In this document: piece by piece, positions 24,182-57,173 of the stretch | Position numbering within the stretch: the first letter of the stretch is position 1 | Layout of the letters: every line of letters begins with the position of its first letter | Assembly: GCA_947085855.1 (NCBI GenBank) | Contig: CAMTYB010000001.1 | Coordinates: 341,788 to 405,787 of the forward strand | Length of the DNA: 64,000 nucleotides | Direction of reading: 5' to 3' | Origin: an uncultured Candidatus Saccharibacteria bacterium | GTDB lineage: Bacteria; Patescibacteriota; Saccharimonadia; Saccharimonadales; 2-12-FULL-41-12 | Notes under the pieces: model-generated | What the model was told of the DNA's origin: nothing | Databases searched by the model: none | Seen by the model: the letters and a program-made list of their open reading frames with translations, nothing else | Position numbers and translations under genes: made by a program

Positions 24182-26374
24182 GTGGTTGTCCGATTACCTA
24201 TCCCTGGCAGTGATGATGGCTCTTGGGGTGACATACTTAATACATTTCTGGCACAAGAGCACAATAGTGACGGCTCCCTCAAGCTTCGCTCCGATGGCAC
24301 ACTGAGTGCCAAGCAGTCAGTTAGTGAAAAGGGCCAAGCCGATGGCTATGCCCCACTTGGCAGTGACGGTAAAGTACCCAGTAGTTACATACCAGCCAGT
24401 GGCAGTGTGCCAGATGCTGACGCCAGCACTAAGGGTGTTATTCAGCTTGCTGGTGACCTAGGTGGAACGGCTGCTAGCCCAACTGTAACCGGCCTGGCTG
24501 CTAAGGCCGAAGATGTGTCGGTCGTCCACAAAGGCAGCACCGAGACCATTTCTGGTGATAAAAACTTCACGGGCGCTCTAACCAAGAGCGGCAATAACGT
24601 TATCGTCGAAGGTGACTCTCGTTTAACAGATCAGAGGACGCCAAGCGATAACTCTGTTTCGACTGCCAAAATACAAAATGCTGCAGTTACAAGTCAAAAA
24701 ATATCTACTACCGGTGTTTCTGACGGCCAAGCGTTTGTACTATCCAGCTCGAACTGGGCGCCAACTTCCGTTGTTGCCACTTCCCTCGTTGGTGCGACTG
24801 ATGGCGTAGCCTCGCTGGGCAGTGACGGCAAAGTGCCAGCAGGCCAATTGCCTTCCGGCCTCACTCTGCCGACTCAAACTGGCAATACTGGTCGCACACT
24901 GGTAACCGACGGTACCAATGCTTCGTGGGCTCGCGGCGTCGTCGATGCCACACTGCCACCCTACAATATGTCACCGTCAAATACGGCGGCGCAGAATGTT
25001 ACCGCCCTCAATGCAGCAATCGCAGCAGTTTGGAATTTTGGTAGCGGCTGGGGTGCCGTATATATCCCTGGTGGCGCCAGCATTAACTACAACCTCAATG
25101 CTGGCATCAGTATCCCCAAGACCGTATCACTCTTTACTGATGCAGAGTGGGGTGCAGCCCTAACCTGGACCACCGATACCGGTGGCGGTACATTCGGATT
25201 CCAACTTGGTACGACGAGTGGCGTAAGCATCGAAATGCCAACAATCAACGGTTTTAAGCTGGTCGGCCCGGGCAATCAGGGCGCTGCTTTAGGTGTTGCG
25301 CCATGTGCCATGGGCGCTATTCGTGCATGCGATAACGCCAGAGTGTTGAATTGCACCATGGTTGGTTGGCGCATGGGCGTATCGTTCATGGGCAATCACC
25401 AAAAGGTCGCCTACTGCCGTGTTGAGCATTGCTACTACGGTGTTTGGTGGTCCGATGGCGCTACTACTTTTTCTGACCAAAGTATTACCCACACCGAGCT
25501 TGTCGGCCAAAAATTTGCATCTGTGGCGGTAGCCGGTGATAGCACTATCGACACCTCTATGTTCGACAAAGTTCATATGGGTTTTTCGCCCTATGGAATC
25601 TATAAAGAGTCCGGCGGCAGCTTCCGCAAAACCGAGATAGCCAATAATACGTCGTTCATTGACTGCTCAATTGAAGCTGTAGGTAACGGCATGATTTATG
25701 ATGAAGCTGACGATTCGCAAGTTCGCGGCTGCCAGTTTATTGGCGGTTACACATATATTATGAATGCTACGTATAAGATTGCTGCTCGCAATGCAGATTA
25801 TTTGGTTCGCTGTAATTATTTTGGGGACAACGTCATGATGGGCTATCGCACCTTCTCTACTCCAGCCGACCTTGGCTTTTTTGACTGCAATTCTATTCGC
25901 AACTGTAAACACACTGATGGCTGGGCGCTGATCTCTGGTATCACCACATCAAAACCAGTGGCTGCTTCAACTAATGATGTCCTCGGTTTCCAAATATTTG
26001 GAGCTAACGGTCAGGAATGTGATGTCATGAAAGTCGCTATCAATGACCAAGCAGCTAACGATCTTTTATTTGCCACTCCAAGCCAAGGCAACGCCGCCTC
26101 CACCGCCAATTTAGGTGCTGGCGGATCCGATATACCAGTCGGCATTCTACAGGCCGCAGCCAACTCTGGTAACTGGGGAGTTGTCGCCAAAAGTGGTCGT
26201 GTCACCGCCAAAAATGTCACAGCCATTACTGGCACTACCTATGTAAAAGCCGACACCTCCAATCGGGGTTCAATCGTCACAGCAACTGCAGGTGATACGA
26301 TGATCGTCGGCTACGCCAACGGCAACGGCGCCGGTAACAGCACCCAAACTGTCTACCTCCAAGGCCTCGCTTAG
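24182..26374 (+). CDS. phage-tail-fibre-like surface protein with probable beta-helix (pectate-lyase-like) C-terminal domain
   Basis: 730 aa, GTG start after AAGGAG. N-terminal RLPIPGSDDGSWGDILNTFL..HNSDGSLK. Tail-fibre motifs APLGSDGKVPSSYIP and TKGVIQLAGDLGGTAASPTV. The C-terminal half resembles a parallel beta-helix. Confidence 0.8.
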   Translation: MVVRLPIPGSDDGSWGDILNTFLAQEHNSDGSLKLRSDGTLSAKQSVSEKGQADGYAPLGSDGKVPSSYIPASGSVPDADASTKGVIQLAGDLGGTAASPTVTGLAAKAEDVSVVHKGSTETISGDKNFTGALTKSGNNVIVEGDSRLTDQRTPSDNSVSTAKIQNAAVTSQKISTTGVSDGQAFVLSSSNWAPTSVVATSLVGATDGVASLGSDGKVPAGQLPSGLTLPTQTGNTGRTLVTDGTNASWARGVVDATLPPYNMSPSNTAAQNVTALNAAIAAVWNFGSGWGAVYIPGGASINYNLNAGISIPKTVSLFTDAEWGAALTWTTDTGGGTFGFQLGTTSGVSIEMPTINGFKLVGPGNQGAALGVAPCAMGAIRACDNARVLNCTMVGWRMGVSFMGNHQKVAYCRVEHCYYGVWWSDGATTFSDQSITHTELVGQKFASVAVAGDSTIDTSMFDKVHMGFSPYGIYKESGGSFRKTEIANNTSFIDCSIEAVGNGMIYDEADDSQVRGCQFIGGYTYIMNATYKIAARNADYLVRCNYFGDNVMMGYRTFSTPADLGFFDCNSIRNCKHTDGWALISGITTSKPVAASTNDVLGFQIFGANGQECDVMKVAINDQAANDLLFATPSQGNAASTANLGAGGSDIPVGILQAAANSGNWGVVAKSGRVTAKNVTAITGTTYVKADTSNRGSIVTATAGDTMIVGYANGNGAGNSTQTVYLQGLA

Positions 26375-26961: not shown

Positions 26962-27528
26962 ATGAGCGGCGAACTTATTTACCCAAAATTCTACGGCGAC
27001 CCCACTACCCTTGTTAGCCTAAGGGAGGCTACGCCCGAAGATACAGAGTTTCTGTACGATATTTTGCATATTGCGGCATGTGAAGCCAACAATGAAGCGC
27101 TGCCGGAAGGCTTTGGGACTTCTCTTCAGGAAGCTCAATCCTACGCATGGTTCAATCGGTACGTTATGGGTTGGGGTCGGGACAATGACTTTGGTCTTAT
27201 AGCCAGTACCGACGATGGCATTCAAGTGGCGGCCGCTTCCTACCGCGAATATGACGAGACCGACTACTTTAGTAGTGCACTTGATAAACTCTTCCCTGCA
27301 CCTCCGTTTATTGAGCTGGCTATCGGTATCAAAAAAGGCTATCGAGGCAACGGACTGGGTCCGTTTCTGCTAACACAAGTTGCTCAGCATGCTGGCGAAG
27401 CTGGCTTCCCGAACATACATTTGTGTGTCAGCCGTAACAATACACACGCTCAGCATGTGTACCAAGGAGTCGGCTTTCGCACCGTAAGCGAAACCTCGAG
27501 CCAAAAATCAATGGTTAAAGAACTGTAG
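26962..27528 (+). CDS. GNAT family N-acetyltransferase
   Basis: AGGAG at 26950-26954 precedes the ATG at 26962. Acetyl-CoA motif GYRGNGLGPFLL. The track ORF begins at 26935. Confidence 0.8.
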   Translation: MSGELIYPKFYGDPTTLVSLREATPEDTEFLYDILHIAACEANNEALPEGFGTSLQEAQSYAWFNRYVMGWGRDNDFGLIASTDDGIQVAAASYREYDETDYFSSALDKLFPAPPFIELAIGIKKGYRGNGLGPFLLTQVAQHAGEAGFPNIHLCVSRNNTHAQHVYQGVGFRTVSETSSQKSMVKEL

Positions 27529-37559: not shown

Positions 37560-37697
37560 GGCACCAAGTGCACCAAGCGTTTCAACTGACAGCTGATCAG
37601 CCAAATAGATATACCCAACACCGATAGCCAGCAGCGCCAACAATAACATTGTCACGAGCCACCGCTGTAGCATTTGTTTACGAGCTCTATGTCTCAT
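37548..37697 (-). CDS. small membrane protein (49 aa), translationally coupled to sortase
   Basis: Its ATG overlaps the sortase TGA (ATGA). Translates MRHRARKQMLQRWLVTMLLLALLAIGVGYIYLADQL... with one TM segment. Below the track cutoff. Confidence 0.35.
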   Translation of the reverse strand: MRHRARKQMLQRWLVTMLLLALLAIGVGYIYLADQLSVETLGALGAGRY

Positions 37698-38284
37698 GGC
37701 GTGTCTCCTGTCGGCTTAGCAATAATCACTAGTCGATCTTTTGGATTCCAAACCGGTGTACAGGTATACAGGGTTAGCTGGGCAGTATCGGTTGGCGCTT
37801 CAACTTCTTTGTTGTCGGCTTTGACCACCTTGGTTTCGGCAACCTGATAATAATAAGCCTTGCCATGCCAATAAACTGCAAAAGTATCGCCAATCTTTAA
37901 CTTATCGAGGTTATAGAAGACTGCTTTGCTGCGATACGTAAAACGGTGGCCAGCGATGACGGTATTACCCTCATCTAGAGGCGTACTGGTGTACGGTTTG
38001 CGCCATGGACCATCGTTTACCGTTGTTTCGGCCTTACCCTCTCGGATTGCTTCATCGACGAAGATTTGAGGAATAACCAGGCGATTGTCTTTTGGAATGT
38101 CATTAGGTGGTGTAGTTTTAGTGGCTGCTCCCGTTACATAGGCAGGTTGACTCGGCGGAAATTTTTTCTGGAGATGAAATGATAAGAATGGCCAAGCCGT
38201 ATATATCAGAATACCTATCCCTAGTACTAAAACGAGGACGGTAAGGACGGTATTAAGCCGGTCATGCCATTGAGCTGCTGACAC
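37694..38284 (-). CDS. sortase (class E-like)
   Basis: 196 aa with an N-terminal TM segment, catalytic His (IAGHRFTY) and LTLYTCTP (TLxTC). Confidence 0.85.
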   Translation of the reverse strand: MSAAQWHDRLNTVLTVLVLVLGIGILIYTAWPFLSFHLQKKFPPSQPAYVTGAATKTTPPNDIPKDNRLVIPQIFVDEAIREGKAETTVNDGPWRKPYTSTPLDEGNTVIAGHRFTYRSKAVFYNLDKLKIGDTFAVYWHGKAYYYQVAETKVVKADNKEVEAPTDTAQLTLYTCTPVWNPKDRLVIIAKPTGDTP

Positions 38285-42545: not shown

Positions 42546-43064
42546 TTACTTCTTCTTTGATGATTTTCTAGGCTGAGTGTAGTGCTCGTGTACAGTGCGG
42601 TAGTCGTAGATTTCAGCTTCGCTGAACCAGTGGGCGATTTCTAGGGCTGCTTCTTCTGGATCACCTGAGGCGTGGATGATATTGGCAATACCCAAGTCCT
42701 GTTCGTCTGCATGAGAGAAGCTGACGTGTGCGTAGTCGCCGCGAATAGTACCCGGTAGAGCGCTCTTTGGTTCAGTGGTACCGACCATCTTACGGACAAG
42801 GCTAACGGCTTCAACACCTTCAAGCACATATGCGATGACCGGGCCAGTTTGCATCATGTCGAGGGTAACATCAAAGGCTTTTTGGCCTCGACGAGAGATC
42901 ATCTTGCCGATGGTTTCGTAGTGGTGATAAAAATGATCGTAACTTGGCTGCAGCATCTTGGTGCCTACAATCTTGAGGCCCGCTCGTTCAAAGCGAGTTA
43001 AAATCTCACCAACAATGCCGCGTTGCACGGTGTCCGGCTTAAGAATAATGAGTGTTCGTTCCAT
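42546..43064 (-). CDS. ndk: nucleoside-diphosphate kinase
   Basis: 172 aa, MERTLIILKPD, active-site NIIHAS. Confidence 0.9.
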   Translation of the reverse strand: MERTLIILKPDTVQRGIVGEILTRFERAGLKIVGTKMLQPSYDHFYHHYETIGKMISRRGQKAFDVTLDMMQTGPVIAYVLEGVEAVSLVRKMVGTTEPKSALPGTIRGDYAHVSFSHADEQDLGIANIIHASGDPEEAALEIAHWFSEAEIYDYRTVHEHYTQPRKSSKKK

Positions 43065-43158: not shown

Positions 43159-45447
43159 CTAGGAGTTCACTGCATATAGAGCGATATCGAGAATAAGACT
43201 TGCATCGGTAGGCAATGCAATGTAATTTTGAATGCGCGGTGCTACCGATGTTTTTGAGGAGATCGTGAACGGTGCTGAGGATTCCTGGTCAGAGATAGCT
43301 CCAGCGGCAACAATCGGAGAGCCTGAGTTCCATAAACCACCTGTTGAACCTGTAACCGTACCGCTATAGGTAGCCGATGGATCCGTACCGCTAGCACCGC
43401 CACTTATTGCGTTCACATTCACCAATACTACGCCTAGACCCCCGGTAGAAATCGCCACACCACCATTCTTGAGCGTCACGGCTAGTATGAACTGCGTAGT
43501 CTTACCTGAGACAGCGTAATCAGCCGGATCAACTACTTCAACTGCCCGAGCCGAGCCGGCCGCGCCAAAAGCCACCGCATATGGCGCAAATGTGTCTGCG
43601 GGGGTTCGATCAACTCCAGACGCCTGTGTATTAGTAGCATCGAGTCGAGTAATCCAACGCCTAACAAGCCGGCGACGTGAGACAAGGTCAGAAGGTAGGC
43701 GCGCCACCGAAAGTGTGCCTGTAGTAAGCTCGCTGGCATTCGTAGTTTTGGTACTGCCAGCATTGCCTATATAGCCAGGATTTTGGCGTGCACGATGGAG
43801 AGCAAGACGCTGTATTTCATCACGAATTTTACGAGCAATAGCCCCTTGCCCGCCGTTTCCAAGGTAATCAGAGCCCGGCAATGGACGGCTTATAGCGGCT
43901 GATGGATGTGAGGAATCCGTCCAGGTTAAAGTGTCGGATGGCCCAGAGCCATTGGTGGCACCTTGGTAACCCGTTCCATATGTATCACCATCTTGTAAAA
44001 GAGAACGAATGTATTGAATATTCATCTGAGGATGTGCGTCAATATAGCCTTTTATTTGAGCGTTGATTACTTCGTACTCACTATTCCAAGTTTCTGTACG
44101 AGTATGCATAAGGCCTGTAGCGAAAAGTGGGACGCTTGGGAATCGATCGTATAGCCCACCGAGCACTGCCGCAATAGAGTTATCTAAGGTAACAGTGCCG
44201 TCGAATTCACCGGAACGGTCATTCTGCGACCCAAGAACTACTACAGCATCTGGTGGATGAGTGTCATCAAAGTACCTATCCACGTCATATGGAATTCTCT
44301 GTTCATAGTTGAGTAAGGTAGATTCAACGACAGGCCCAAACGACACAAAGCCTTTGGCACGATAGCCAGTGCCACCTTGTCCGGATAAGTGAACGTCCAT
44401 ACCAAGTGCTCGTCCCAACATTGGCACAAAACCAAGCGTATGTCGGTATTGGCCTTGCCCTGGAACGGTAAACGAATCACCGAGCAGCAGCAGCTTGCCT
44501 GCTCGCCAGTTTGGATAAGATAGTTGATCTGTCGACAAGAAGTAGAATCCACCAAAAGTAGCAGACTCGGTGTACATCTTGATTTGCCAATCGCCCGATG
44601 ACCCAAGATCAATCGGGACAAGATAATACAGACCATCACCAGGAGATGTAAATATTTCTTGTCCATTTTGACTCGACAACGCCCGAAACGGACGCATAGT
44701 AGCACCATCTTTACCGGCAAAGTACTCAATGTACTGGGTACCACTTGTATCTCGCATTACCTGGACCAGGTAGCGACCCCTGAAACGAAAAGAGATTTCT
44801 CCGTATGATCCAGTCATGCCGCCACCATCTGGCGTAGCGTCAGTACGAGCAGTTTGGAATTGGCCTACCTGTTGAGAAGTGGCTGTGGAGCCACCCCAAT
44901 AATTAAACGGCCCCGAAAGCCGATAAGTAGTATCGTTTTTCGGATCAGCATAGTCTGGTTGGGTCCGCGTAAGATTAGCAGATGTATATGACCCACCTGA
45001 CATAGTATTCATAAGTGTGGCAGCAGCTGTAGGCATTGTTCCTGTTGATAGCCCTGTGGAGCGAGTACCTATAGTTAGCCCAGAGATAACCGTGTCTGTC
45101 AGAAGATCTTGTAATGAAGCTCCTCCAAACACTGATTGAATACCAGGAATGTCTCTTTTCTGATAATCGGCTAGCTGGTCTTCGTCCACTAAACCGCTCG
45201 GTAACTGGCTTGTGTCTAGCGTGCTAGACCCATCAAGGGTAGCTATACCAGAAGGAACCCCTTTTTGACTTGCTGGGATTGCATTATCGGCCGCAGTCAA
45301 GCTTGCTTGCACCGAACTGTCGAGTTTGGCCTTGGCAATTACGCCATCTTTGAGCGAGCCATCGTTATTATGAACTTGATTGAGAAAATCATTAAGAATT
45401 GAACCCCAATTTCCCGGATCACCGCCAACTGTCGGTAGACGAGCCAT
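43159..45447 (-). CDS. phage-tail-fibre-like surface protein with SGNH/GDSL hydrolase domain
   Basis: 762 aa. N-terminal MARLPTVGGDPGNWGSILNDFLNQVHNNDGSLK is paralogous to 24182-26374. Also ATLDGSSTLDTSQLPSG, and GDS block LLLLGDSFT with a later VVVLGSQND. Confidence 0.8.
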   Translation of the reverse strand: MARLPTVGGDPGNWGSILNDFLNQVHNNDGSLKDGVIAKAKLDSSVQASLTAADNAIPASQKGVPSGIATLDGSSTLDTSQLPSGLVDEDQLADYQKRDIPGIQSVFGGASLQDLLTDTVISGLTIGTRSTGLSTGTMPTAAATLMNTMSGGSYTSANLTRTQPDYADPKNDTTYRLSGPFNYWGGSTATSQQVGQFQTARTDATPDGGGMTGSYGEISFRFRGRYLVQVMRDTSGTQYIEYFAGKDGATMRPFRALSSQNGQEIFTSPGDGLYYLVPIDLGSSGDWQIKMYTESATFGGFYFLSTDQLSYPNWRAGKLLLLGDSFTVPGQGQYRHTLGFVPMLGRALGMDVHLSGQGGTGYRAKGFVSFGPVVESTLLNYEQRIPYDVDRYFDDTHPPDAVVVLGSQNDRSGEFDGTVTLDNSIAAVLGGLYDRFPSVPLFATGLMHTRTETWNSEYEVINAQIKGYIDAHPQMNIQYIRSLLQDGDTYGTGYQGATNGSGPSDTLTWTDSSHPSAAISRPLPGSDYLGNGGQGAIARKIRDEIQRLALHRARQNPGYIGNAGSTKTTNASELTTGTLSVARLPSDLVSRRRLVRRWITRLDATNTQASGVDRTPADTFAPYAVAFGAAGSARAVEVVDPADYAVSGKTTQFILAVTLKNGGVAISTGGLGVVLVNVNAISGGASGTDPSATYSGTVTGSTGGLWNSGSPIVAAGAISDQESSAPFTISSKTSVAPRIQNYIALPTDASLILDIALYAVNS

Positions 45448-45571
45448 AACTACAATACCCCGCGCAACAAAATTCTCATGCTTGTACGTATTATCGAGAA
45501 AACTAAGTTAAAAATCAATTGGGCTTTGTTTGTTTGCTCAGTCAACACAATAACGAGACATCTTAAAAACT

Positions 45572-46504
45572 ATGTCGTACAATAAACGTATGCAGTTCCA
45601 ATCATTACTGACCGACTTCTTAGAATATCTTGAGATCGAACAAAATCGGTCGCAAAAAACTATTGCCAATTACGACCATTACCTCACTCGTCTTATAGAT
45701 TACGCCGGTGACATTAAAGTCAGCGACATTACGCCCGAACTCGTCCGCAAATGGCGCCTGTGGCTCAACCGACTCGGTACTAACACTGCCGACGAGCTGC
45801 AAAAAACTACCCAGAATTACCATCTGATAGCCCTGCGTAGCTTCTTGAAGTACTGCGCCAAACGAGACATTGTGGCCATGAGTCCAGAGAAGATTGAGTT
45901 GGCCCGGGTTCAACGCAAGCAAGTTACTTTTTTAAGCGACGACGAAATGGCACGACTCCTGGAGCAGCCAGATCTCAACACCGAAGCCGGCCTGCGCGAC
46001 CGCGCAATTTTGGAACTTCTCTACTCCAGCGGGCTGCGTGTTTCGGAACTAGTTGGACTCAACAAAGACCATATCAATCTGAAGCGCCGTGAATTTATGG
46101 TGCGCGGTAAAGGCCAGAAAGATCGACCAATTTTTGTCAGCGAAGAAGCGGCCGACTGGGTGCAGCGCTACGTCGATATGCGTACCGACGCCAGCCCTGC
46201 CCTGTTTGTACGGGTTGGTGGTCACAAGAAAGTCGATACCACCGGTAATTATTTGCGCCTAACTGCTCGTAGTGTCCAGCGAATGATTGCTCGATATGCC
46301 TTGATGGCCGGTATTACTAAAAAAGTTAGCCCGCATACCATGCGCCACAGTTTTGCGACAGACCTATTGATGAACGGAGCTGACTTGCGGTCGGTTCAGG
46401 CTATGCTCGGTCACAGTAATATAGCGACTACCCAAATTTATACACATGTCACCGACCCTCACCTCAAGAAGGTGCATGATCAATTCCACCGTCGTAAGGG
46501 CTAA
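45572..46504 (+). CDS. tyrosine recombinase XerC/XerD family
   Basis: 310 aa, C-terminal RHSFATDLLMNGADLRSVQAMLGHSNIATTQIYTHV (R..H..R..Y catalytic set). Confidence 0.9.
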   Translation: MSYNKRMQFQSLLTDFLEYLEIEQNRSQKTIANYDHYLTRLIDYAGDIKVSDITPELVRKWRLWLNRLGTNTADELQKTTQNYHLIALRSFLKYCAKRDIVAMSPEKIELARVQRKQVTFLSDDEMARLLEQPDLNTEAGLRDRAILELLYSSGLRVSELVGLNKDHINLKRREFMVRGKGQKDRPIFVSEEAADWVQRYVDMRTDASPALFVRVGGHKKVDTTGNYLRLTARSVQRMIARYALMAGITKKVSPHTMRHSFATDLLMNGADLRSVQAMLGHSNIATTQIYTHVTDPHLKKVHDQFHRRKG

Positions 46505-46507: not shown

Positions 46508-47599
46508 CTACTGGAAGTAAGTGGCGCCGCCACAGTCGTTGGCTACGCCGTAGCCAGAGTAGACATCGAGACGCTTACATATACCATTCATGGATTCAAA
46601 GCCAGGAGGTGTTACTTCTTGAGGATAGAACGGTATGCGTACTTGCATACGGCGCATAACATCGCTCACTTTACCGGTTGAATCAATTTTGATTTGAGCT
46701 TCTTTGAAGCGAACGTTTTGATTCGATGCATCCCTACCTTCAATAGTAAGCGCCGAGTTGCTATAGATTGACGTAACCTTTACAAACAAACCATTAGCCG
46801 GCGGCAAACCCTGAATTGTAGCTCGGCATTTACCCGAGGAGCAGTCTGCTGCTGCCACAAAGCCTTCGTTCTCGCTACTACTGGCGTGGCGTGAGTAATT
46901 AACAAGTCCCGGACCAGTATCCCGCGTTGGGCGTAGAAATACTGTAAATTGATCCTCAGCTAAGCGCTCTCTGCTGATAGCACCGTTGGTAACCGGCATA
47001 AAACTGAGTCTCAAAATACCCGCGTCGCAGTTGTTGGAATAGGTTGGCTGAGTCGGGTAATTATGTATCGAAGCTATTGCCTCGCAGCCACCAAAATTCT
47101 GACCACCATCGATGTCATTCCATTCAACTATTACAGACCGTGGTGGCACATCGGTTGTTGTCTGCAATGATAGCAGTTCTCCTCGATAGCCATCTATTGA
47201 GCTGTACTCAAGTGTCTTTGGCGCTCGGTCAAATAGTACACAAATTTCCTGGAAAGTTGCGCTCGTATCGAGTTGAGCGGCGATAACGGGTGCTGCTGAG
47301 CAGGTTTCTTTTTTGTAGTCTGCGGCGACAATAGCCGCTAAATTGTCTGGGTTACGCAGGTACTTAGTGGCATCATTGATGCCTGATTCGGCCACATAGA
47401 AGGCTTGATTGGACAGCTGTCGATCGAGGGTTTGGCGTTGTTCTCGCCGACTTATTTCGGCAAAAGCCAGGACCGTTAGCGAGATGATTACTAAAAGAAA
47501 AACCGTTACCATAATAGCGGCCAGTCCAGATTCATTTGTACGGAGTTGTTTTAAGTTTTTCATACAAACTCTTTTATGCTTAATTTTAGTATACCTCAT
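46508..47599 (-). CDS. PilX-like minor pilin / pilus-assembly protein
   Basis: 363 aa. ESGLAAIMVTVFLLVIISLTVLAF matches the PilX N-terminal pattern. Likely start is the ATG at 47563 (MKNLKQL). Confidence 0.65.
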   Translation of the reverse strand: MRYTKIKHKRVCMKNLKQLRTNESGLAAIMVTVFLLVIISLTVLAFAEISRREQRQTLDRQLSNQAFYVAESGINDATKYLRNPDNLAAIVAADYKKETCSAAPVIAAQLDTSATFQEICVLFDRAPKTLEYSSIDGYRGELLSLQTTTDVPPRSVIVEWNDIDGGQNFGGCEAIASIHNYPTQPTYSNNCDAGILRLSFMPVTNGAISRERLAEDQFTVFLRPTRDTGPGLVNYSRHASSSENEGFVAAADCSSGKCRATIQGLPPANGLFVKVTSIYSNSALTIEGRDASNQNVRFKEAQIKIDSTGKVSDVMRRMQVRIPFYPQEVTPPGFESMNGICKRLDVYSGYGVANDCGGATYFQ

Positions 47600-48270
47600 A
47601 AGCGTTTTTTGACCGTCGTATTTAGTGAGCTAACGGCACAGAAACTGCCGCCGAGACTATTTGGCACGCAGACATTGCCTGGACTAATGTCCAAGTCTCC
47701 GTACACAACGGTGAGAGTGAAACTCAGGAATGTTCTATTTGGCGATTCGGTAAAGGTCAGGTTTGCCAAACGAGCATTTTGCGGCAGTAACTCCCGCCGC
47801 TGAGCAATAGCCTCGGCTGAAGTATTAGTGTTAGCGTCTTGCGGCACGGGGTTATTGAGGTCGAGTGGCGCACAGGTGGCACCATTATTTATCAGATCAA
47901 GCCAGAGAGCATGCGGTGTTGTTACAGTATCGAGATCACTCGTGCCACGGACTGGCACCCCTATCGTATAGGTAAATCGATAATTACCAATACAGGTGGC
48001 TGAGACCTGCAGACCGCTAAAGCCAACTGGCCCCTGAGTTGTAACACCGCTCGAACTATTAAACTGATACGCATTACTAATATCTTTAGTTATAGACCGA
48101 GTAACTTCTTGTGTCTTGCCGCTAATAATCCCCTTGTAGTACGCCCGGCCAATATACAGTAATCCGGTCGTAGCAATGAGAATAATGGTACTAAACACCA
48201 AAGTAGAGATCAGTAGCTCTACAAGCGTAAAGCCGGCCTGCTGTTTGGGCGTGGTCGTTTTCGTTTTCAT
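47596..48270 (-). CDS. prepilin-type minor pilin (PilW-like)
   Basis: 224 aa with a G|FTLVELLIS cleavage/methylation motif. Confidence 0.75.
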   Translation of the reverse strand: MKTKTTTPKQQAGFTLVELLISTLVFSTIILIATTGLLYIGRAYYKGIISGKTQEVTRSITKDISNAYQFNSSSGVTTQGPVGFSGLQVSATCIGNYRFTYTIGVPVRGTSDLDTVTTPHALWLDLINNGATCAPLDLNNPVPQDANTNTSAEAIAQRRELLPQNARLANLTFTESPNRTFLSFTLTVVYGDLDISPGNVCVPNSLGGSFCAVSSLNTTVKKRL

Positions 48271-49517
48271 CAGTTTCTAAAGAGCCTTACACTATCGATT
48301 TGCAGATTCGGGTCGTTACCGTTGTTATTTTGCCAAACTATGTACAAACGCTCGCCATGATCTGGTGGAATTACTACTTGCGTAGAGTGACTCATCTGCT
48401 GATCTTGGGCGCCAGCTGGTAAGGTCGGGTCGTCGCCAATAAATTGAGACGTGCTCCAATCGGTACCCGTGCGCACAATTAAGTTATAGCCTGGATAGCC
48501 AGCCGGTACAGCATTATTGAACTGACGATATGTAATCTCAAGCGTGGCTGGTCCTGGCTGTAGGCCAGGCATGTAGTATGTCACCAAGACTTCGCGCCAG
48601 GCTCGCATTGAATTTCCACTCTGGAAACATCCGTCGGCGCCATCATTCCATAGGCCTTCTGCAGCTGAACAGCCGATGTATTCACGACCAGCGGCCGTAG
48701 AACTGAAAGCTATAGCTGGATCTGGTGACTCGGTGTTGTCCTGAGCATTGGCGCAGCCTGGGTCATCTGGATAGTCTGTCCTGGTATCGCTATCATTGTC
48801 TTGTCCGTCAATACACTGCGGGTTAGTTTCATCGTTATCGGTGGCGCTGGTACAGCCCGGGTCGGCTGGATAATCAGTATGCGCGTCGCCGTCATCATTG
48901 ATACCATTTTGACATTGCTCTGGCGCCGTACCACTAACATAGAATGAATCGCTCGTGTTGTAGTAGAGGCTATAAAACGACCTGACTTCCTCAATTTCAC
49001 CACCGCCAGCTGGCAACCATCGGAGCGTGATAGCGTATGGCCGAACAGTTGGACTGGAACCAACAGCGACTGCGCGATCTGGCGACCAAATCATGACACT
49101 ATATAGATCATCGTTGGCATTATTGTCCAATCGACAGGCTGCGGGATACGCAGTCAAATCGTCGACTTCTTTATCAGCGACTGGTGGCGTAGCATCAGCC
49201 GACACAACCTGTATGCCCGTTGGTGCGGTCACTGGGTCAACTGGTACAGTCTGTAGACAGAAATAGGCATCATTGCCGGGTAGTGTCTGCACATCAGCAT
49301 ATGCCTTTAGAAGTTCAACCTGAGTCTCCAGGTATTTAGTGGCCAAAGAGCGTTCTTGGGATTTCTGGGTAGCAATGGTGCTGCGATTTGATAGTGCGTA
49401 GGCTGTGGTCAGCAGTAAGCTCAAAACAGCCGTACAGATGAGCACTTCGGCAATAGTATCGCCACGCTGACTGAGGTGTTTGATTTTACGCATTACACCA
49501 TTCATTAGGCTGCACAT
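48270..49517 (-). CDS. prepilin-type minor pilin with Cys/Asp-rich repeat domain
   Basis: 415 aa with G|DTIAEVLI. Two C..G.D.D.D..TDYP.DPGC repeats (48753-48914). Confidence 0.7.
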   Translation of the reverse strand: MCSLMNGVMRKIKHLSQRGDTIAEVLICTAVLSLLLTTAYALSNRSTIATQKSQERSLATKYLETQVELLKAYADVQTLPGNDAYFCLQTVPVDPVTAPTGIQVVSADATPPVADKEVDDLTAYPAACRLDNNANDDLYSVMIWSPDRAVAVGSSPTVRPYAITLRWLPAGGGEIEEVRSFYSLYYNTSDSFYVSGTAPEQCQNGINDDGDAHTDYPADPGCTSATDNDETNPQCIDGQDNDSDTRTDYPDDPGCANAQDNTESPDPAIAFSSTAAGREYIGCSAAEGLWNDGADGCFQSGNSMRAWREVLVTYYMPGLQPGPATLEITYRQFNNAVPAGYPGYNLIVRTGTDWSTSQFIGDDPTLPAGAQDQQMSHSTQVVIPPDHGERLYIVWQNNNGNDPNLQIDSVRLFRN

Positions 49518-50449
49518 CCTAGGGCTATAGCCTGGTCATCAAAGAAGGTTTGAGTCGACAAATTCTGGTCCGTACCTGCTGCTACAAACGACGTTGGACC
49601 ACCGCCTGGATCAAGTCGAACACCCAAACCTATAGCGGCTGAGCGGCCGCCAGGAGCGTCGCGCATACAAATAACAAGGCTGCGATAGGTATTGGCTGGG
49701 CCAACAATGTTAGCAGTAGACAACGTATCAACCGAGGCGGTCAAGTCACCGATGCCGCCGTTTAAGCCGACGTTACCACTGAGGGCGGCTAGGCTGGCTC
49801 GACCGTTAGCTAAGTTGGTTGCGGTGTTGTTGGTAGTCTGCAGGGCTACGCTCTGAACAATAGATATTTCAGGGAATGAATTTACTGTGCTATACGGGCT
49901 AAAATTAGTAACATACAACACTCTAGACACCTCTATGCCATTTCGAATTGATAGCTCTTCGATACCAGTGGTTCCGCTCGGACTATAAAATGCTCGTGGC
50001 ACTGATTCTTCAATACTAGCTGGCTGCTCGGTTTTACCGGTGGTGGGGTTAAAATCAAGTCGCTTACCGGCAATGCTAACAGCTCGAATATTAGATACGT
50101 ATCCAGACGGGTTTCGGTAGAATTGAACGGCTTTGCCTAAAAATACACATTCTTCATTGGTTCCCTGCGGTCGCGGTGTAGCCGTAACAACCGGGACTGC
50201 CGCCGGATTTGATGACATACCAGGGACAGTACAGCTAATCGAGCCGTTATTTGACGAGAAACCATTCTCGACATCGTTGATGAGGTCTTGCATACGCGAC
50301 TCTAGATCTCGTACACCGGTGGAAAACTGGGTTTGTTGCTGACGACCATTAATGAGTGTGCCGGCCGATATCAAAAGAGCGCCACTAATTGTCAGGAAAA
50401 TTAGTACCTCAAGAATAGTATATCCAGCCAAATTTTTTTGGCATTTCAT
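49505..50449 (-). CDS. prepilin-type minor pilin (FimT/GspH-like)
   Basis: 314 aa with G|YTILEVLIFL. Confidence 0.7.
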   Translation of the reverse strand: MKCQKNLAGYTILEVLIFLTISGALLISAGTLINGRQQQTQFSTGVRDLESRMQDLINDVENGFSSNNGSISCTVPGMSSNPAAVPVVTATPRPQGTNEECVFLGKAVQFYRNPSGYVSNIRAVSIAGKRLDFNPTTGKTEQPASIEESVPRAFYSPSGTTGIEELSIRNGIEVSRVLYVTNFSPYSTVNSFPEISIVQSVALQTTNNTATNLANGRASLAALSGNVGLNGGIGDLTASVDTLSTANIVGPANTYRSLVICMRDAPGGRSAAIGLGVRLDPGGGPTSFVAAGTDQNLSTQTFFDDQAIALGCAA

Positions 50450-50479
50450 ACTTCGCAGTATAGCATAAGCTCTATCTGT

Positions 50480-51316
50480 TTAAACCCCAGTAAATAGTGA
50501 TGTATACCAATCCAGCAAATCAACACCGTACAGCATGGTAATTATGCCGCCCACAATCAAAAATGGCCCGAAAGGTATCCGGCTTTTCCGGTTAAGTTTT
50601 TTGCTAGCCAACAGTGGTACCGTCAACAACGTACCGAGCAATGAAGCAATAAACAGCATGACTGCCGCCTCCAGCGGACTAAGCAAGAAGGCTCCGATCA
50701 AGAAGCCGAGTTTTACATCTCCCCCACCTATCCAGCTACCTTGCGACACCTGGAACAGCAGATAGAATATACCCCCACCAACCACAACTCCGCCTAGTGC
50801 TCCTAGTAGCGGCTGCGCGGACTGCTCAATGCCGACATTCACCAATACGAAGGCTGCAGCTACTGCGTACAGCGGGAAAATGATCCGATTTGGTAACAGC
50901 ATCCAGCGAAGATCATAGACCAACAATGCCATCAGGCCGGTCAAGCAGACCAACCACAAGCCAAATGAGGCCATTTCGAGCCCTTTTAGCTCCTCTGGCC
51001 AGGCGACATAGGAAAAGATAAACAGAGCGGCTGTGGTCAGCTCTACTGCAGGATACTGCCAACTGATTGATCCTTTACAGTAGCGGCACTTCCCGTGCAG
51101 GCTCAGCCAGCTCAAAACCGGTATCAAATCTTGTGCCCGTAGTGTGTGTCCGCAGTGCGTACAAACTGAGCGGCCTTTAGCTATAGACAGTTCCTCTGAG
51201 CTGACTTTTTTGATTCGCTTGGATGCTGGCAGAGCTTGTTGATGCAAGCGCCAGACTAAGGCGTTAACAAAGCTCCCTAAACAGAGTCCCAACAAGGTAA
51301 GTGCTGCAAAAATCAT
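50480..51316 (-). CDS. pilD: prepilin peptidase (A24 family)
   Basis: 278 aa. N-terminal GSFVNALVWRL, zinc-binding CTHCGH...CRYC, polytopic. Confidence 0.9.
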   Translation of the reverse strand: MIFAALTLLGLCLGSFVNALVWRLHQQALPASKRIKKVSSEELSIAKGRSVCTHCGHTLRAQDLIPVLSWLSLHGKCRYCKGSISWQYPAVELTTAALFIFSYVAWPEELKGLEMASFGLWLVCLTGLMALLVYDLRWMLLPNRIIFPLYAVAAAFVLVNVGIEQSAQPLLGALGGVVVGGGIFYLLFQVSQGSWIGGGDVKLGFLIGAFLLSPLEAAVMLFIASLLGTLLTVPLLASKKLNRKSRIPFGPFLIVGGIITMLYGVDLLDWYTSLFTGV

Positions 51317-51341
51317 TATGCTCTAGCTTATCACTAAACAG

Positions 51342-51371
51342 AAAAAAACGGGACTGGATTGTCCCGTTTTT
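51342..51371 (-). terminator. intrinsic terminator between pilA and pilD
   Basis: Minus strand AACGGGAC, loop AATCCA, GTCCCGTT, then TTTTTC. Lies 19 nt after the pilA stop. Confidence 0.7.
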
Positions 51372-51389
51372 CCTGATCGCCTGACCTAT

Positions 51390-51974
51390 TTAGAGGTTCT
51401 GGCAGACACCTACGAGGCCACCTTGGCGCTCTGTAGGATAGATCAACACTACAGTTCGAGGTGTAGCACCGTTAGTAGTAGCGATGTTGCCAGCGCCGTT
51501 ACCGATGGTTGTAGCTACGTTAGTAGTGTTAGTACCTGGATCACCGTATGGAGTTGCTCCGTTGTCGTTACACTTCAAGTTGTTTCGCAACAATACTTGG
51601 TCGGTACCGATGTTAGCTGGCAATGTTGCAGCTGCACCTGGGGCAACCCATGTGTAGTCAAGTCGCAATAGCTGAGTTCGGCGAACGTTCTCAATCACGT
51701 CAGGGATTGCTGTAGCAGCACCGTCTTGCGTATGAGTTACGTTAGCTTGGGTAGCTAAGTTACCGTTGTTATTGTTGATAGCTTCTTGTGTCGCACCAGC
51801 CAATGAAGCTGCATCGTTCTTACGTTGCGTGTTACGGCTGTTACGTTGGAGTGAAGGTACCGCTAGGAACACGATCAATACAATCAGACCGGCAATAGCG
51901 AGTACAATCAAGACTTCGATAATGGTGAAGCCCTTTTCTTGTTTCTTTAGTAGTGGTAATTTCATTATGATCAC
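51390..51974 (-). CDS. pilA: type IV major pilin
   Basis: 194 aa with KG|FTIIEVLIVLAIAGLIV. Own terminator and short spacing to pilC. Confidence 0.85.
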   Translation of the reverse strand: MIIMKLPLLKKQEKGFTIIEVLIVLAIAGLIVLIVFLAVPSLQRNSRNTQRKNDAASLAGATQEAINNNNGNLATQANVTHTQDGAATAIPDVIENVRRTQLLRLDYTWVAPGAAATLPANIGTDQVLLRNNLKCNDNGATPYGDPGTNTTNVATTIGNGAGNIATTNGATPRTVVLIYPTERQGGLVGVCQNL

Positions 51975-52069
51975 ACCCTCCTGTGATGCATGATTATTGT
52001 TGGTTATGCTTACATACTAGGTTAGCTTTTTGTTTATTGCAAGCAGTTTTCCCCAGTTTTGTATATCTG

Positions 52070-53302
52070 TTACTTAATAATGTCTTTACCGGCCAGGCCA
52101 TAGATCGGCAAAAGAACGGCAGCTACGATGGCAAACGCCACGATACCAAGCAGCACCATCATTAGTGGCTCGATGATAGTAGAGATGGTCTTAATCTGGT
52201 TATCAACTTCTTTTTCGTAGTAGTCAGCTGTTTTTTCGAGCATATCCTCTAAGGAACCTGATTCCTCACCAATACGAAGCATGTTTGGCACGAGTACCAG
52301 GAAGTTCGGATCTCCTTCTATGGAGTCTGAGAGTGACTTACCGCCCTTTACCTTCTCGATAGCCCTATTAACTGAGCGCTCCAGGTGTACGTTGTTAATG
52401 GACTGAGACACAACCTCAAGCATCTGGATCAGTGGCACACCGCTGGCAACCAGTGTTGTGCCAGTACGTGCAAAGCGCGCCATATAGAGCTTCATAAACA
52501 ACGGTCCAAACGGCCAGGCCTTCATCTTTAGGCCATCGATGACATCCCGACCAGGACCAGTCCGAGCATACTTAGTCACAGCAAAGCCTAAGAAGATTAA
52601 AATACCTATGACGATATACCAATAATCAGTTATGAAGTGTGATGCGGCTAACATAACCTTGGTGATGAGTGGCAGCTCAGCGCCAGGAATGTCTTTGTAG
52701 ATAACCTCTACTTGAGGCAAAACCTTTACAAGCATAAAGCCTACGACACCGATCATAACGAGGATAACAACTGCCGGATAAGCCAGGGCGCCTTTGATCT
52801 TACCCATAATTTCGGCGTCTTTTTCTTGCTGGAAGGCAATGCGCTCCAAGGCTTTGTCGAGCGTACCAGAAACTTCACCGGCTGCCATCAAGTTAATGTA
52901 GATGTTGTTAAAGACTTTGGGGTGCTTCTTTAAAGCCTCAGAGAACGAAGTTCCACCTTCGATATCGCTAATAATTTCGTTAATGACCGACTTGAGAGCT
53001 TTGTTCTCTGTTTGGTCGTTTACACTGCGCAATGACTGCACCAGTGGTAAACCGGCATTGATCAAGGTCGACATTTGGCGAGAAAAGACAATTTTCTCTT
53101 TGGTTTTAATGCGATTCTTGTACCACTCAATGGGGTTAAACTTGCCGAGTGTTCCGCTAGCACCTTCTTCTTTGATGTCAATCGGCGCCAAGCCTTGTTG
53201 CTGAATTAGCTTGGCAGCACCAGCCTCATTATCGGCCTGTAGCGTAGCTTTAATCTGTTGGCCAGTAGCTGGGTCGCGAGCGGTATATTTGTATGTAAGC
53301 AT
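52070..53302 (-). CDS. pilC: type IV pilus platform protein (GspF/PilC family)
   Basis: 410 aa with duplicated T2SS-F domains and 3 TM segments. Confidence 0.9.
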   Translation of the reverse strand: MLTYKYTARDPATGQQIKATLQADNEAGAAKLIQQQGLAPIDIKEEGASGTLGKFNPIEWYKNRIKTKEKIVFSRQMSTLINAGLPLVQSLRSVNDQTENKALKSVINEIISDIEGGTSFSEALKKHPKVFNNIYINLMAAGEVSGTLDKALERIAFQQEKDAEIMGKIKGALAYPAVVILVMIGVVGFMLVKVLPQVEVIYKDIPGAELPLITKVMLAASHFITDYWYIVIGILIFLGFAVTKYARTGPGRDVIDGLKMKAWPFGPLFMKLYMARFARTGTTLVASGVPLIQMLEVVSQSINNVHLERSVNRAIEKVKGGKSLSDSIEGDPNFLVLVPNMLRIGEESGSLEDMLEKTADYYEKEVDNQIKTISTIIEPLMMVLLGIVAFAIVAAVLLPIYGLAGKDIIK

Positions 53303-53324
53303 GTTTGTTCTCTTTAGTTTGACC

Positions 53325-54392
53325 CTATGATCTCATGAGCCGATCTAATTCATCAAGGTCAACGGCTACATTGCGAGCCTCATCATAGGTAATAGTACCA
53401 GCGTGAATCAGGTTAACAAGGGTCTTGTCCATAGACTGCATACCGTGTTCGGAGCCAGTCTGGATAACTGCCTCTAACTGGTGCGTCTTGCCTTCACGAA
53501 TAATGTTACGGACGGCTGGTGTAGCCACCATGACTTCAGCGGCAGCAATACGGCCGCCACCAATGGTTGGGATAAGGCGCTGCGAACAGATGCCCATCAA
53601 GATATTGCTCAGCTGGGCTCGAATTTGCGGCTGCTGGTGCGGCGGAAAAACGTCAATCATACGATCAATACTCTGAGCTGCACCGTTAGTGTGCAGCGTC
53701 GCAAACACCAAGTGACCGGTTTCGGCAATCGTAATTGCCGAAGCAATCGTCTCGAGGTCACGCATCTCACCAAGCAATACAACGTCCGGGTCCTGGCGCA
53801 AGCTACTACGTAAAGCTGCCGAGAATGAGAACGTGTCATAATGCACTTCTCGCTGTACGATGACTGATTTGTTGCTCTTGTGCGTAAATTCGATCGGATC
53901 TTCAATAGTCACAATGTGAACCGCTTTTTCGACGTTAATCTTATGGACTAACGCCGCCAAGGTTGTCGACTTACCAGAACCGGTTGGACCGGTTACTAAG
54001 ATAAGACCTCTCGGGTAATCAGCGAATTTAGAGATAATTGGCGGCAAACCAAGCTGTTCGAGAGTTGTGATCTCATTAGGAATTAGTCGCAAAGCGGCTG
54101 CTATATTACCTCGTTCGTGGAAAGCGTTAACACGGAAGCGGCCAAGGTCGCCAAAGGCAAAGCTAAAGTCAAATTCTTTATCTTTTAATAAGATCTGTTT
54201 TTGCTCGTCATCAAGAATAGCAAAAACGAGTGATTCGACTGATTCTTCGTTGAGTACAGTTCCGCCGGTTACAGATACCAAAGCACCGTCAACACGCAGC
54301 ATTGGTGGCAGGCCAACTTGCAAGTGCAAGTCAGAGGCTTTCTTTTTTATAACTTCTTCTAAAAGTGTTTCTATTCGTATGTGTGCTGTCAC
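53325..54392 (-). CDS. pilT: twitching-motility retraction ATPase PilT
   Basis: 355 aa, Walker A GPTGSGKST, His box and PilT-type C-terminus. Confidence 0.9.
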   Translation of the reverse strand: MTAHIRIETLLEEVIKKKASDLHLQVGLPPMLRVDGALVSVTGGTVLNEESVESLVFAILDDEQKQILLKDKEFDFSFAFGDLGRFRVNAFHERGNIAAALRLIPNEITTLEQLGLPPIISKFADYPRGLILVTGPTGSGKSTTLAALVHKINVEKAVHIVTIEDPIEFTHKSNKSVIVQREVHYDTFSFSAALRSSLRQDPDVVLLGEMRDLETIASAITIAETGHLVFATLHTNGAAQSIDRMIDVFPPHQQPQIRAQLSNILMGICSQRLIPTIGGGRIAAAEVMVATPAVRNIIREGKTHQLEAVIQTGSEHGMQSMDKTLVNLIHAGTITYDEARNVAVDLDELDRLMRS

Positions 54393-54418
54393 GGTGGTGC
54401 CCTTTATTTCCCCTCTGG

Positions 54419-56251: not shown

Positions 56252-56263
56252 GTACCGAGGCTC

Positions 56264-56500
56264 CTAGAATGGGTTCGCGTTAGAACCGTTACCGATTTCG
56301 ATAAGTTGGGTTGGGTTGATCGCGTTATTATTGAAGACTTTATTATCCGGCTGTTGGAACTCAGACTTGATTGGTTCAACAATCTGCGCCGATAGCTCCT
56401 TGTTTTTCTTTGGCACAAAGAACTGTTGTGTTAGTACTATCGAGATAACTCCACCGATAGCAGCTACAATCAAGATGAGGGCAATATCTTTTTGTTTCAT
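56264..56500 (-). CDS. small single-pass membrane protein in the pilus operon
   Basis: 78 aa, positioned between pilO-like and pilB. Confidence 0.55.
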   Translation of the reverse strand: MKQKDIALILIVAAIGGVISIVLTQQFFVPKKNKELSAQIVEPIKSEFQQPDNKVFNNNAINPTQLIEIGNGSNANPF

Positions 56501-56501
56501 A

Positions 56502-57173
56502 TTATTTCTTCTTCACCGTTTCGGTTTTAATATCAAATTTCATTGGTGGCTGGAAATAGGTCTTAGCATCAACAGTAATTTTTAGCGAGCCTGGATCACC
56601 AGTAATCGTCAGTTTTTTAACCTGCATTGGTCGAATGGAGCGTTCAAAGGTTTGCAAAATTGGCTTTATCGAGCCAGCCGTGCCGTTAACAAGTACTGTG
56701 TACGGTACGTCAATCGGCTGTGGTGCCGCACTGGCCGTGGCAGCTCCTTGAGCAAGTTCATCGTCAGTTCCAGTTATGGCTTCTACGTTATAGTCCTTGA
56801 GCATTTTGTTCAGACTGGTAGTTAACGCCGGGAAGTCATACTTACTTGGCAATGCATCCAGTATAATTCGCGGGTTTTCACCGTCTTTATCGCCCGTACC
56901 CTTAGCATTGCCTCCCAGCACGTTTGTTTGGCTGTCGGCAAAGGTCTGGTAAGCCGTCTTGAGCTTGTTAACTTCTTCTACGTTTTTCTCGAGCTGGTCA
57001 CGAGCCTTTTTCTTCTTATCGATAACTTCGGCTTGGTATGACTGCTGCTTGATCAGTGAGTTAGAAGCTACAATTGAGAAAATTATGAGAATTGAAGCCA
57101 GGCCAACAGCGATAACAATGGTTGTGTTGTCTTTGTCGATAGCGAGCTGCTTGAGCGAAAGTTGCTTACCCAT
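56502..57173 (-). CDS. pilO: PilO-like pilus assembly protein
   Basis: 223 aa with an N-terminal TM segment, a coiled coil and a ferredoxin-like C-terminus. Follows pilN, with start/stop overlap. Confidence 0.6.
   Translation of the reverse strand: MGKQLSLKQLAIDKDNTTIVIAVGLASILIIFSIVASNSLIKQQSYQAEVIDKKKKARDQLEKNVEEVNKLKTAYQTFADSQTNVLGGNAKGTGDKDGENPRIILDALPSKYDFPALTTSLNKMLKDYNVEAITGTDDELAQGAATASAAPQPIDVPYTVLVNGTAGSIKPILQTFERSIRPMQVKKLTITGDPGSLKITVDAKTYFQPPMKFDIKTETVKKK

Follow-up and report, generated by a model that had tools for sequence, protein, structure and literature searches.

The tailspikes of podoviruses dock through short N-terminal peptides, with a conserved anchor that carries exchangeable heads. 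Receptor-binding proteins that bear an SGNH domain are well documented in phages (PMC13123978, PMC8471582, PMC9569702), examples being fibers of Acinetobacter phage Aristophanes, Pectobacterium phage Possum and Klebsiella prophages (PMC8471582, PMC9569702, PMC13123978). Phages commonly use SGNH esterase fibers to recognize and modify O-acetylated surface glycans, and the type of enzyme described here is in itself no surprise. The gene in question lies in a 64,000-nucleotide (64-kb) stretch of DNA from an uncultured Candidatus Saccharibacteria bacterium (assembly GCA_947085855.1, contig CAMTYB010000001.1, positions 341,788 to 405,787 of the forward strand), which was analyzed as a whole and is referred to below as the window. 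What is new is that a compact cellular chromosome holds an intact, selectively maintained copy of such a gene without an export signal, and that its product starts with a short, uncurated module that marks thousands of protein clusters with varied glycan-acting heads, the sampled members of which are mostly cellular.

The explanation that we somewhat favor is that the 762-amino acid (aa) product of the gene, hereafter the target, is a retained, phage-derived modular fiber with an SGNH esterase, similar to those of carbohydrate esterase family 2 (CE2), that de-O-acylates a surface glycan. The protein consists of four parts, namely a 33-aa MARLP module, a short fiber-like linker, a CE2-like unit of beta-sandwich and SGNH domain, and a C-terminal, jelly-roll-like beta-sandwich. 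Its ancestry would lie with virion-associated esterases carried by phages of high-G+C (actinobacterial-type) hosts, and it is now encoded by a lone chromosomal gene that selection maintains. A surface polysaccharide may be held by the beta-sandwich and C-terminal domains while the SGNH domain strips O-acetyl or other O-acyl groups from it, and the N-terminal module may dock the enzyme, as well as paralogs with other heads, onto one common partner. The parts of the gene, in coordinates of the window, are as follows.

43159..45447, minus strand: the whole gene, from the list of open reading frames (ORFs), for a 762-aa phage-fiber-like, putative SGNH esterase protein; stop codon at 43159-43161
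45349..45447, minus strand: N-terminal MARLP module MARLPTVGGDPGNWGSILNDFLNQVHNNDGSLK, aa 1-33, common to the target and a paralog in the window (paralog B)
45088..45348, minus strand: fiber-like linker with the motif GIATLDGSSTLDTSQLP, aa 34-120; weak PHROG tail-fiber and minor-tail matches at aa 36-85
44503..45087, minus strand: beta-sandwich domain before the esterase, aa 121-315; predicted strands, block-mean predicted local distance difference test (pLDDT) mostly 51-87
43804..44502, minus strand: predicted SGNH/GDSL esterase domain, aa 316-548; Pfam, and Foldseek probability 1.0 to many SGNH esterases
44473..44475, minus strand: codon of Ser325, predicted nucleophile in block I (GDS); G323-D324-S325 invariant in 11 homologs
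44371..44373, minus strand: codon of Gly359, predicted oxyanion hole in block II (GQGGTGY); G358, G359, T360 and G361 invariant
44221..44223, minus strand: codon of Asn409 in block III (GSQND); S407 and N409 invariant, D410 nearly so
43906..43917, minus strand: codons of Asp511-Ser-Ser-His514 in block V (DxxH); D511 and H514 invariant in 11 homologs
43162..43680, minus strand: predicted C-terminal beta-sandwich (jelly-roll-like), aa 590-762; strand-rich, block-mean pLDDT about 70-90 for most of it when modeled alone

An earlier note on this DNA, made from the sequence alone, had assigned the central domain to the SGNH hydrolases, and this assignment was borne out. A Pfam scan of the target placed Lipase_GDSL_2 on aa 322-478 (E 8.7e-7), and the homologs P0007 and P0008 bear precomputed matches to PF13472 and PF00657; an NCBIfam scan of the target gave no family match. 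The catalytic blocks were aligned across eleven homologs with identities down to 27-31%, in which blocks I, II, III and V are invariant at the residues listed above. In the target, these blocks reside in the motif LLLLGDSFTVPG (aa 319-330), GQGGTGY (aa 356-362), VVVLGSQND (aa 402-410) and DSSHPS (aa 511-516). The earlier note had quoted the first and third of these; GQGGTGY and DSSHPS are the two that make up the full SGNH set. The blocks also align with solved SGNH enzymes, block I falling on the catalytic FIGDS of CtCE2 (2wao), the ND of block III on the ND of 2wao, 7bxd and 5b5s, and the DSSH of block V on DGLH in 7bxd and DGVH in 5b5s. The spacing of block III (G-x-x-N-D in LGSQND) is one residue longer than the textbook GxND. 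The earlier note had named the absence of catalytic residues from a proper alignment as grounds for rejecting the assignment; the residues are present, and the predicted triad (Ser325-Asp511-His514) is complete, with Gly359 and Asn409 as putative oxyanion residues. The choice of Gly359 among the glycines of block II is one that we infer. Directly before block V lies a Gly-rich loop, YGTGYQGATNGSGPSD (aa 482-511, window positions 43915-44004), which is nearly invariant in the family (G491, G493, G496, G500, G502 and D505) and recognizable in P0012 and in a protein encoded by viral contig L009. None of the canonical SGNH blocks includes this segment, which is a candidate substrate loop.

The predicted fold points to the same family of enzymes. 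In the AlphaFold2 model of the target (mean pLDDT 60.5, with domains at about 65-90), aa 1-120 are disordered or helical, aa 121-315 form a beta-sandwich, aa 316-548 an alpha/beta domain and aa 590-762 a second beta-sandwich; the linker is of low confidence and partly helical, and a loop of the first beta-sandwich (aa 180-199) is likewise of low confidence. The top Foldseek matches in the PDB were the CE2 esterases 2waa, 2wab, 2wao, 3u37 and 4xvh (E 4e-12 to 1e-10), which aligned over 384-455 columns across both the sandwich and the SGNH domain with template modeling (TM) scores of 0.47-0.65 on the target. The acyltransferase SsfX3 came next (E 3e-10), and platelet-activating factor (PAF) acetylhydrolase, Ape1 and others scored much lower. 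Predicted viral structures in BFVD outscored the PDB entries, with E 1e-17 to 1e-19 over 460-825 aligned columns. The leaders there were the 'tail fiber' U5PTS9 of Clavibacter phage CN1A, a Gordonia phage esterase, and SGNH proteins of Mycobacterium phage Naca and Bacillus phage Mater, and further matches included many 'minor tail' and 'esterase' proteins of actinophages (Gordonia, Arthrobacter, Mycobacterium). A search of the PDB with the whole protein at the sequence level returned nothing usable.

The C-terminal domain reached a pLDDT of 68.5 when modeled alone. Picornavirus VP1, the cement protein of phage KHP40 and the C-terminal domain of BclA were considered as families for it and set aside, as the matches (E about 1e-3 to 1e-2) were too weak. 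No sequence relatives of the domain outside the family were found with a profile against the PDB or in a word index of 5.8 billion proteins, an index unsuited to such pieces, the 207-aa C-terminal query having missed even its parent protein. A 99-aa N-terminal query of the same index yielded 4 matches from 6 candidates and was superseded by the exhaustive profile search described below. The earlier note had called the C-terminal region rich in Gly, Ser, Thr and Ala. There is indeed a mild enrichment (these residues make up 46% of aa 546-762 versus 40% overall), but the region is predicted to be a folded beta-sandwich and not low-complexity sequence. Sortase anchoring through a C-terminal LPTDA was also dismissed, because the motif is not LPxTG, is not conserved in the homologs P0006-P0009 and is located inside a predicted beta-strand region.

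The body of the target is homologous to proteins encoded in phage virion modules. The full-length relatives comprise 20 matches, among them one identical protein and, in four other assemblies, four orthologs at 80-94% identity. P0006-P0009, at 38-47% identity, share the sandwich, esterase and C-terminal domains (41-48% identity in the first beta-sandwich) and have other N-termini; one of the more distant SGNH relatives has an Mtd_N phage-fiber N-terminus. P0007 (42% identity over 86% of the protein) is the closest non-orthologous relative with a readable context. Its gene (8001-10274 of L020, a 47-kb phage contig of 67% G+C) directly follows the genes for terminase, a Mu-type portal, protease, cement and major capsid and precedes the tail genes and tape measure. 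The contig that encodes P0006 (47% identity) has a G+C content of 70% and carries small co-linear ORFs, and on viral contig L009 a 470-aa sandwich-plus-SGNH ORF (9344-10756) separates head from tail genes. When one genome was scanned for each of 185,579 species, relatives turned up in seven, all of them Actinomycetota (Conexibacteraceae, five Microbacterium and one Curtobacterium). Similarity to cultured phages was faint at the sequence level, amounting to 28% identity with Gordonia phage esterases and 46% over 50 aa with a Streptomyces phage hypothetical protein.

The N-terminal module has the pattern 'MARLP...WG..LN..L...DG.LK', in which R3, L4, P5, D10, W14, G15, L18, N19, L22, G30 and K33 are invariant in 17 sequences; the target retains all 11 positions. 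A profile of 45 columns built from the 17 N-termini, with the target among the seeds (profile A2), was run against 1.84 billion representative proteins and returned 6,716 clusters at E<=1e-3, 5,158 of them at E<=1e-10, with independent members of the module scoring E 1e-18 to 1e-29. The match begins at residue 1 in almost every listed cluster, and M-[A/S/T/P/V]-R-L-P opens 139 of the 147 top representatives that were newly returned. No Pfam or NCBIfam model covers the module. The heads in 74 members of at least 280 aa included Lipase_GDSL_2 (14), DUF5907 (12), pectate-lyase-like (6), BppL_N (6), phage tail repeat (6), beta-helix (3) and collagen (2) domains, as well as single cases of a YadA stalk, GHL15, polysaccharide deacetylase, Phage_tail_C, Mtd_N, BNR and CBM5_12; SGNH is thus the commonest recognizable head in these longer members.

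On one phage contig (L010), the module directly precedes a tailspike beta-helix, near genes for portal, protease, major head protein and head-tail adaptor. Together with the 42%-identical virion-module protein and the phage structural matches, this supports by homology the earlier note's description of the target as tail-fiber-like. A search of 2.9 million viral contigs with the strict module pattern gave 5 confirmed loci, a count that compares only roughly with that from the general library, the viral pattern being stricter than profile A2. The module genes that we sampled are mostly cellular: P0017 is beside tatA, tatC, recO and mraZ, P0122 is beside genes for a tRNA methyltransferase and a UvrD/AddA-type helicase, and P0099, both module genes of the window and two genes on contig L015 are likewise cellular. 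Of seven MARLP-bearing genes with informative surroundings, six are in cellular contexts (the loci being the window, twice, L015, twice, L018, L023 and L024). The gene for P0099, a 1,086-aa MARLP protein, is beside hrcA-grpE-dnaK (L024:8001-19261) and is followed by genes for Malectin, Laminin_G_3 (1,040 aa) and small DUF5907/Phage_phiTE_241_C proteins, an arrangement suggestive of clustered phage-like surface or lectin proteins on a cellular contig. Matches to the module in cultured phages were confined to a 'hypothetical protein' of two Streptomyces phages; in phage LuckySocke it is the product of gene 41 (465 aa, L017:9001-10398), in a tRNA-rich, non-structural region. Searches of the literature on tail-fiber-like or tailspike proteins in Saccharibacteria or Patescibacteria, or on DUF5907, found nothing relevant, and a transposon sequencing (Tn-seq) paper on Southlakia has only a stand-alone 190-aa SGNH protein.

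The window encodes a second protein with this module.

24182..26374, plus strand: paralog B, 730 aa, recognized by N-terminal similarity to the target, with the module at aa 1-35 (24182-24286) and a different body

The earlier note had proposed that the two proteins have the same N-terminal module, and the likeness is real but short, with 31 of 67 residues identical (46%, E 8e-10), which is far beyond chance; the bodies are unrelated, and the target and paralog B are the only ORFs in the window with the WG..LN..L motif. Paralog B has matches to DUF5907 and BppL_N (phage baseplate) just under threshold and PHROG minor-tail matches. No enzymatic domain was found in it by Pfam at E<=1, its body had no BLAST match among the proteins collected in this analysis, and it lacks both a signal peptide and any hydrophobic segment. 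The note's suggestion of a modular surface-enzyme family stands in its modularity, with one adaptor, about 6,700 clusters and many heads. The surface location that it implied does not follow, given the absence of signal peptides, nor does an enzymatic role for paralog B. Downstream of paralog B (26412-27528, plus strand) are a 179-aa ORF without a family match and a GNAT-type acetyltransferase-like ORF (NCBIfam scores below cut-offs).

Exchange of the adaptor can be seen directly on L015, where an SGNH ortholog and a 792-aa paralog are 4.4 kb apart in inverted orientation and share their first 77 aa exactly. The DNA of the two genes is near-identical from the ATG to about 240 nucleotides (nt), nothing is shared beyond this point, and the upstream DNA is unrelated. 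The two genes have recently undergone an exchange that was limited to the adaptor module. The resulting inverted repeats of about 240 bp (10001-10240, plus strand, and 18920-19162, minus strand) enclose leuS, a gene for a 196-aa protein and a Mur ligase gene. Seen from the SGNH gene, the leuS/Mur ligase block of L021 is reversed in both gene order and orientation, a difference suggestive of rearrangement through the MARLP-module repeats. The beta-helix protein P0011, from another sample, has both module and linker in common with the target (61% identity over 56 aa of the linker).

The target gene is under strong purifying selection. When the target was compared with its ortholog P0005 (80% identity, on L015), the proportion of synonymous differences (pS) was 0.77-0.91 and thus saturated, and the proportion of nonsynonymous differences (pN) was 0.089 in the sandwich, 0.069 in the esterase domain, 0.094 in the C-terminal domain and 0.34 in the first 100 aa. 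Low pN with saturated pS indicates that the gene is maintained by selection and that the esterase is its most constrained part; the esterase domain is 91% identical between the orthologs, and the linker is the most divergent part. The ORF (43159-45447, minus strand) is preceded by an in-frame stop with no earlier start codon available, so an N-terminal extension of the 762-aa frame is not possible, and a protein identical to the target is present in a public collection, on a contig of 817,656 bp. The G+C content of the gene is 49%, versus 47% for the window and 67-70% for the phage relatives.

The surroundings of the gene are cellular, and the earlier note's placement of it among core genes, divergent from xerC/D and just upstream of ndk, was confirmed. 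A gene for an XerC/D-type recombinase (45572-46504, plus strand; TIGR02225/02224, E about 1e-78) diverges from the target gene across a gap of 124 bp, and ndk (42546-43064, minus strand) is 94 bp downstream and is followed by a tRNA-Arg gene. The intergenic gap, common to the target and xer genes, contains one further feature.

45490..45518, minus strand: promoter-like site TTGATT, 17 nt, GATAAT, from a consensus scan only (9/12 matches), with no evidence of function

The window carries genes for RNase P RNA, five tRNAs, threonyl-tRNA synthetase (ThrRS), MiaA, YifB, TatC, a sortase and a SurA-like peptidyl-prolyl isomerase (PPIase) in addition to ndk and xer, and no match to phage structural families was found in its 64 kb. 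No repeats resembling attachment (att) sites were found around the target gene or next to the tRNA-Arg gene. A prophage or other integrative element was rejected as a description of the locus, as the neighboring recombinase scores as XerC/D and att-like repeats and phage genes are missing from the window. Orthologs of the target are also beside core genes, for leucyl-tRNA synthetase (LeuRS), Mur ligase, L32, NusB and YceD: P0005 is located between yceD-rpmF-nusB and leuS, and P0003 (L021) has a Mur ligase gene and leuS as neighbors in a different arrangement again. As a possible partner or chaperone, a pilin-like gene (177 aa) that precedes the ortholog on L015 was considered and rejected because it is not conserved in L021.

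Several other genes of the window concern the cell envelope. A type IV pilus cluster that looks complete (46508-58943, minus strand; minor-pilin set at 46508-51974) is one gene (Xer) away from the target, an adjacency that is not conserved in relatives, and contains pilM, genes for pilB-like and pilT-like ATPases, pilC, two N-methyl pilins, a prepilin peptidase and a PilX-like gene, along with several unassigned genes with pilin-type N-termini. The presence of a sortase gene (37694-38284, minus strand) suggests a Gram-positive-type envelope. Taken by themselves, a contig size of at least 0.82 Mb, a G+C content of 47% and the genes for the pilus, sortase and Tat make a member of the Patescibacteria/Saccharibacteria the probable source. 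A 1,257-aa protein (59113-62886, minus strand) with a classical signal peptide and no match in Pfam, NCBIfam or PHROGs, and a 917-aa protein (31499-34252, minus strand) that has a single hydrophobic segment as well as a CBM_4_9 sugar-binding domain, are candidate surface proteins. The RNase P RNA (3756-4113, minus strand; 253.6 bits) is of the bacterial class A type.

A number of these and other observations weigh against a phage-derived esterase fiber retained by the cell. The Lipase_GDSL_2 score of the target (30.0 bits) is below the curated gathering cut-off of 32.9, and a profile of the esterase region matched solved SGNH enzymes weakly (E 3e-3 to 3e-2, with 2wao at E 0.009). Block V falls within aa 491-527, a loop to which the model assigns a pLDDT of less than 50, and the geometry of the triad is not readable there. 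The target has no signal peptide or hydrophobic segment (Kyte-Doolittle values for 15-aa windows peak at 0.14 in the first 40 residues), whereas other large proteins of the window have classical signal peptides; an extracellular role would accordingly need an unknown export route or cell lysis. The genes for the homologs in L020 and L009 close the head-gene block, following those for major capsid and cement and standing apart from the distal tail genes, and the proteins might be head or neck fibers rather than tail fibers. The search for phage genes covered 64 kb, and a particle cluster may be situated elsewhere in the genome. No conserved neighbor beside the relatives hints at a partner, and their neighbors have no homologs near the target.

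The main rival, which we consider unlikely, is that the target is a fiber of a phage-derived particle (a defective prophage, tailocin or gene-transfer-agent-like element) whose main cluster is elsewhere in the genome of about 0.8 Mb, and that it is released by lysis and docks through the MARLP module. The absence of a signal peptide suits a phage protein freed by lysis and is awkward for a cell-surface enzyme unless the MARLP module is an export or docking signal. The particle would also account for the module on a tailspike in a real phage contig (L010), for the body homologs in virion-gene modules and for several paralogs with one N-terminal adaptor, as found in phages with several receptor-binding proteins, and some gene transfer agents encode fiber genes away from the main cluster. 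It has to contend with the lack of phage structural genes both in the 64 kb of the window and in the 22-kb, 11-kb, 17-kb and 19-kb neighborhoods of relatives, and with the 5 viral loci that carry the strict pattern, set in a rough comparison against thousands of general clusters. Phage ancestry of module and body could alternatively mean that an old prophage left the gene behind to decay, or that it arrived by horizontal transfer as a passenger, in either case without present function, and its varying position between related genomes and the small number of full-length homologs (20 matches) would fit such a history. This possibility is already disfavored and is the least probable of those considered here, as the 762-codon ORF is intact with all catalytic residues kept, pN is about 0.07-0.12 with saturated pS against an ortholog in a different genome, intact orthologs exist in at least four further assemblies, and the gene has a G+C content near that of the window, unlike its 67-70% phage relatives, and no flanking att-like repeats.

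The target might instead serve the cell's own envelope or metabolites, as an Ape-like peptidoglycan O-acetylesterase or as an intracellular acyltransferase or lipase of the SsfX3/GDSL type, unrelated to recognition of another cell. The fold matches to Ape1 (E about 1e-4) and SsfX3 (E 3e-10) are consistent with this, and a missing signal peptide is to be expected of a cytoplasmic enzyme. Ape-type enzymes, however, act outside the membrane and carry signal peptides. Moreover, the fiber-type N-terminus and linker are common to tailspike-like proteins, the best matches are by far phage virion proteins and CE2 polysaccharide esterases, and there are no biosynthetic neighbors, all of which makes such a role improbable.

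A further and rather doubtful reading is that small-genome bacteria, possibly episymbiotic Patescibacteria living on Actinobacteria, domesticated phage receptor-binding proteins as a modular toolkit with which to recognize and process the surface glycans of partner cells, with MARLP acting as a cellular export or docking tag and not as a virion anchor. The tag would allow a single surface structure to be fitted with interchangeable heads (esterase, beta-helix depolymerase, deacetylase, lectin), and would explain the missing signal peptides. Three observations fit such domestication and do not prove it: the esterase body has its only relatives in actinobacterial genomes and high-G+C phages, the target gene is near a type IV pilus cluster in the window, and N-termini are homogenized within a genome. 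Cultivated Saccharibacteria grow on Actinobacteria (PMC10633639), and it is tempting to speculate that this habit would give meaning to the actinophage affinity of the esterase body. Should cells indeed display these proteins, they would be candidate means by which very small bacteria select and hold on to their partners, and would offer a direct handle, in that a head could be swapped and specificity tested. Should they belong to particles encoded elsewhere, they would point to unrecognized phage-derived elements in reduced genomes. Under either reading, the MARLP module is worth defining as a family.

The known systems that resemble the target each share part of its design. Like phage SGNH esterases and receptor-binding proteins, it combines an N-terminal adaptor, a fiber region and an SGNH esterase domain in one chain, and the adaptor is exchangeable in its family as it is in phages. 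It differs from phage esterase fibers in being the product of a single gene among housekeeping genes on a small chromosome with no phage genes nearby, in having the MARLP module, which is rare in viral collections, and in being kept by selection across cellular genomes.

The CE2 enzymes (CjCE2A, 2waa; CtCE2, 2wab and 2wao; Est2A, 3u37; 4xvh) have the same succession of an N-terminal beta-sandwich and a C-terminal SGNH domain, and their GDS and ND blocks align with those of the target, but they are only 13-16% identical to it. CE2 enzymes use a Ser-His dyad, whereas in the target an invariant Asp precedes the His by three positions (D511-x-x-H514); the target additionally has the conserved Gly-rich loop before block V and extra modules at both termini. 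We regard the target as CE2-like in architecture and probably in mode of action, and do not file it as a member of CE2. Ape1 (4k3u, 8gld) likewise combines an SGNH esterase with a beta-sandwich sugar-binding domain and acts on an O-acetylated cell-wall glycan, but it is a far weaker match (E about 1e-4, TM about 0.3), its sugar-binding domain is inserted in the catalytic domain instead of preceding it, and it is exported by a signal peptide. With the anchored receptor-binding proteins of phages, finally, the MARLP proteins have in common that one short N-terminus is joined to many unrelated heads and that, in the paralogs on L015, the boundary of recombination falls just past the anchor.

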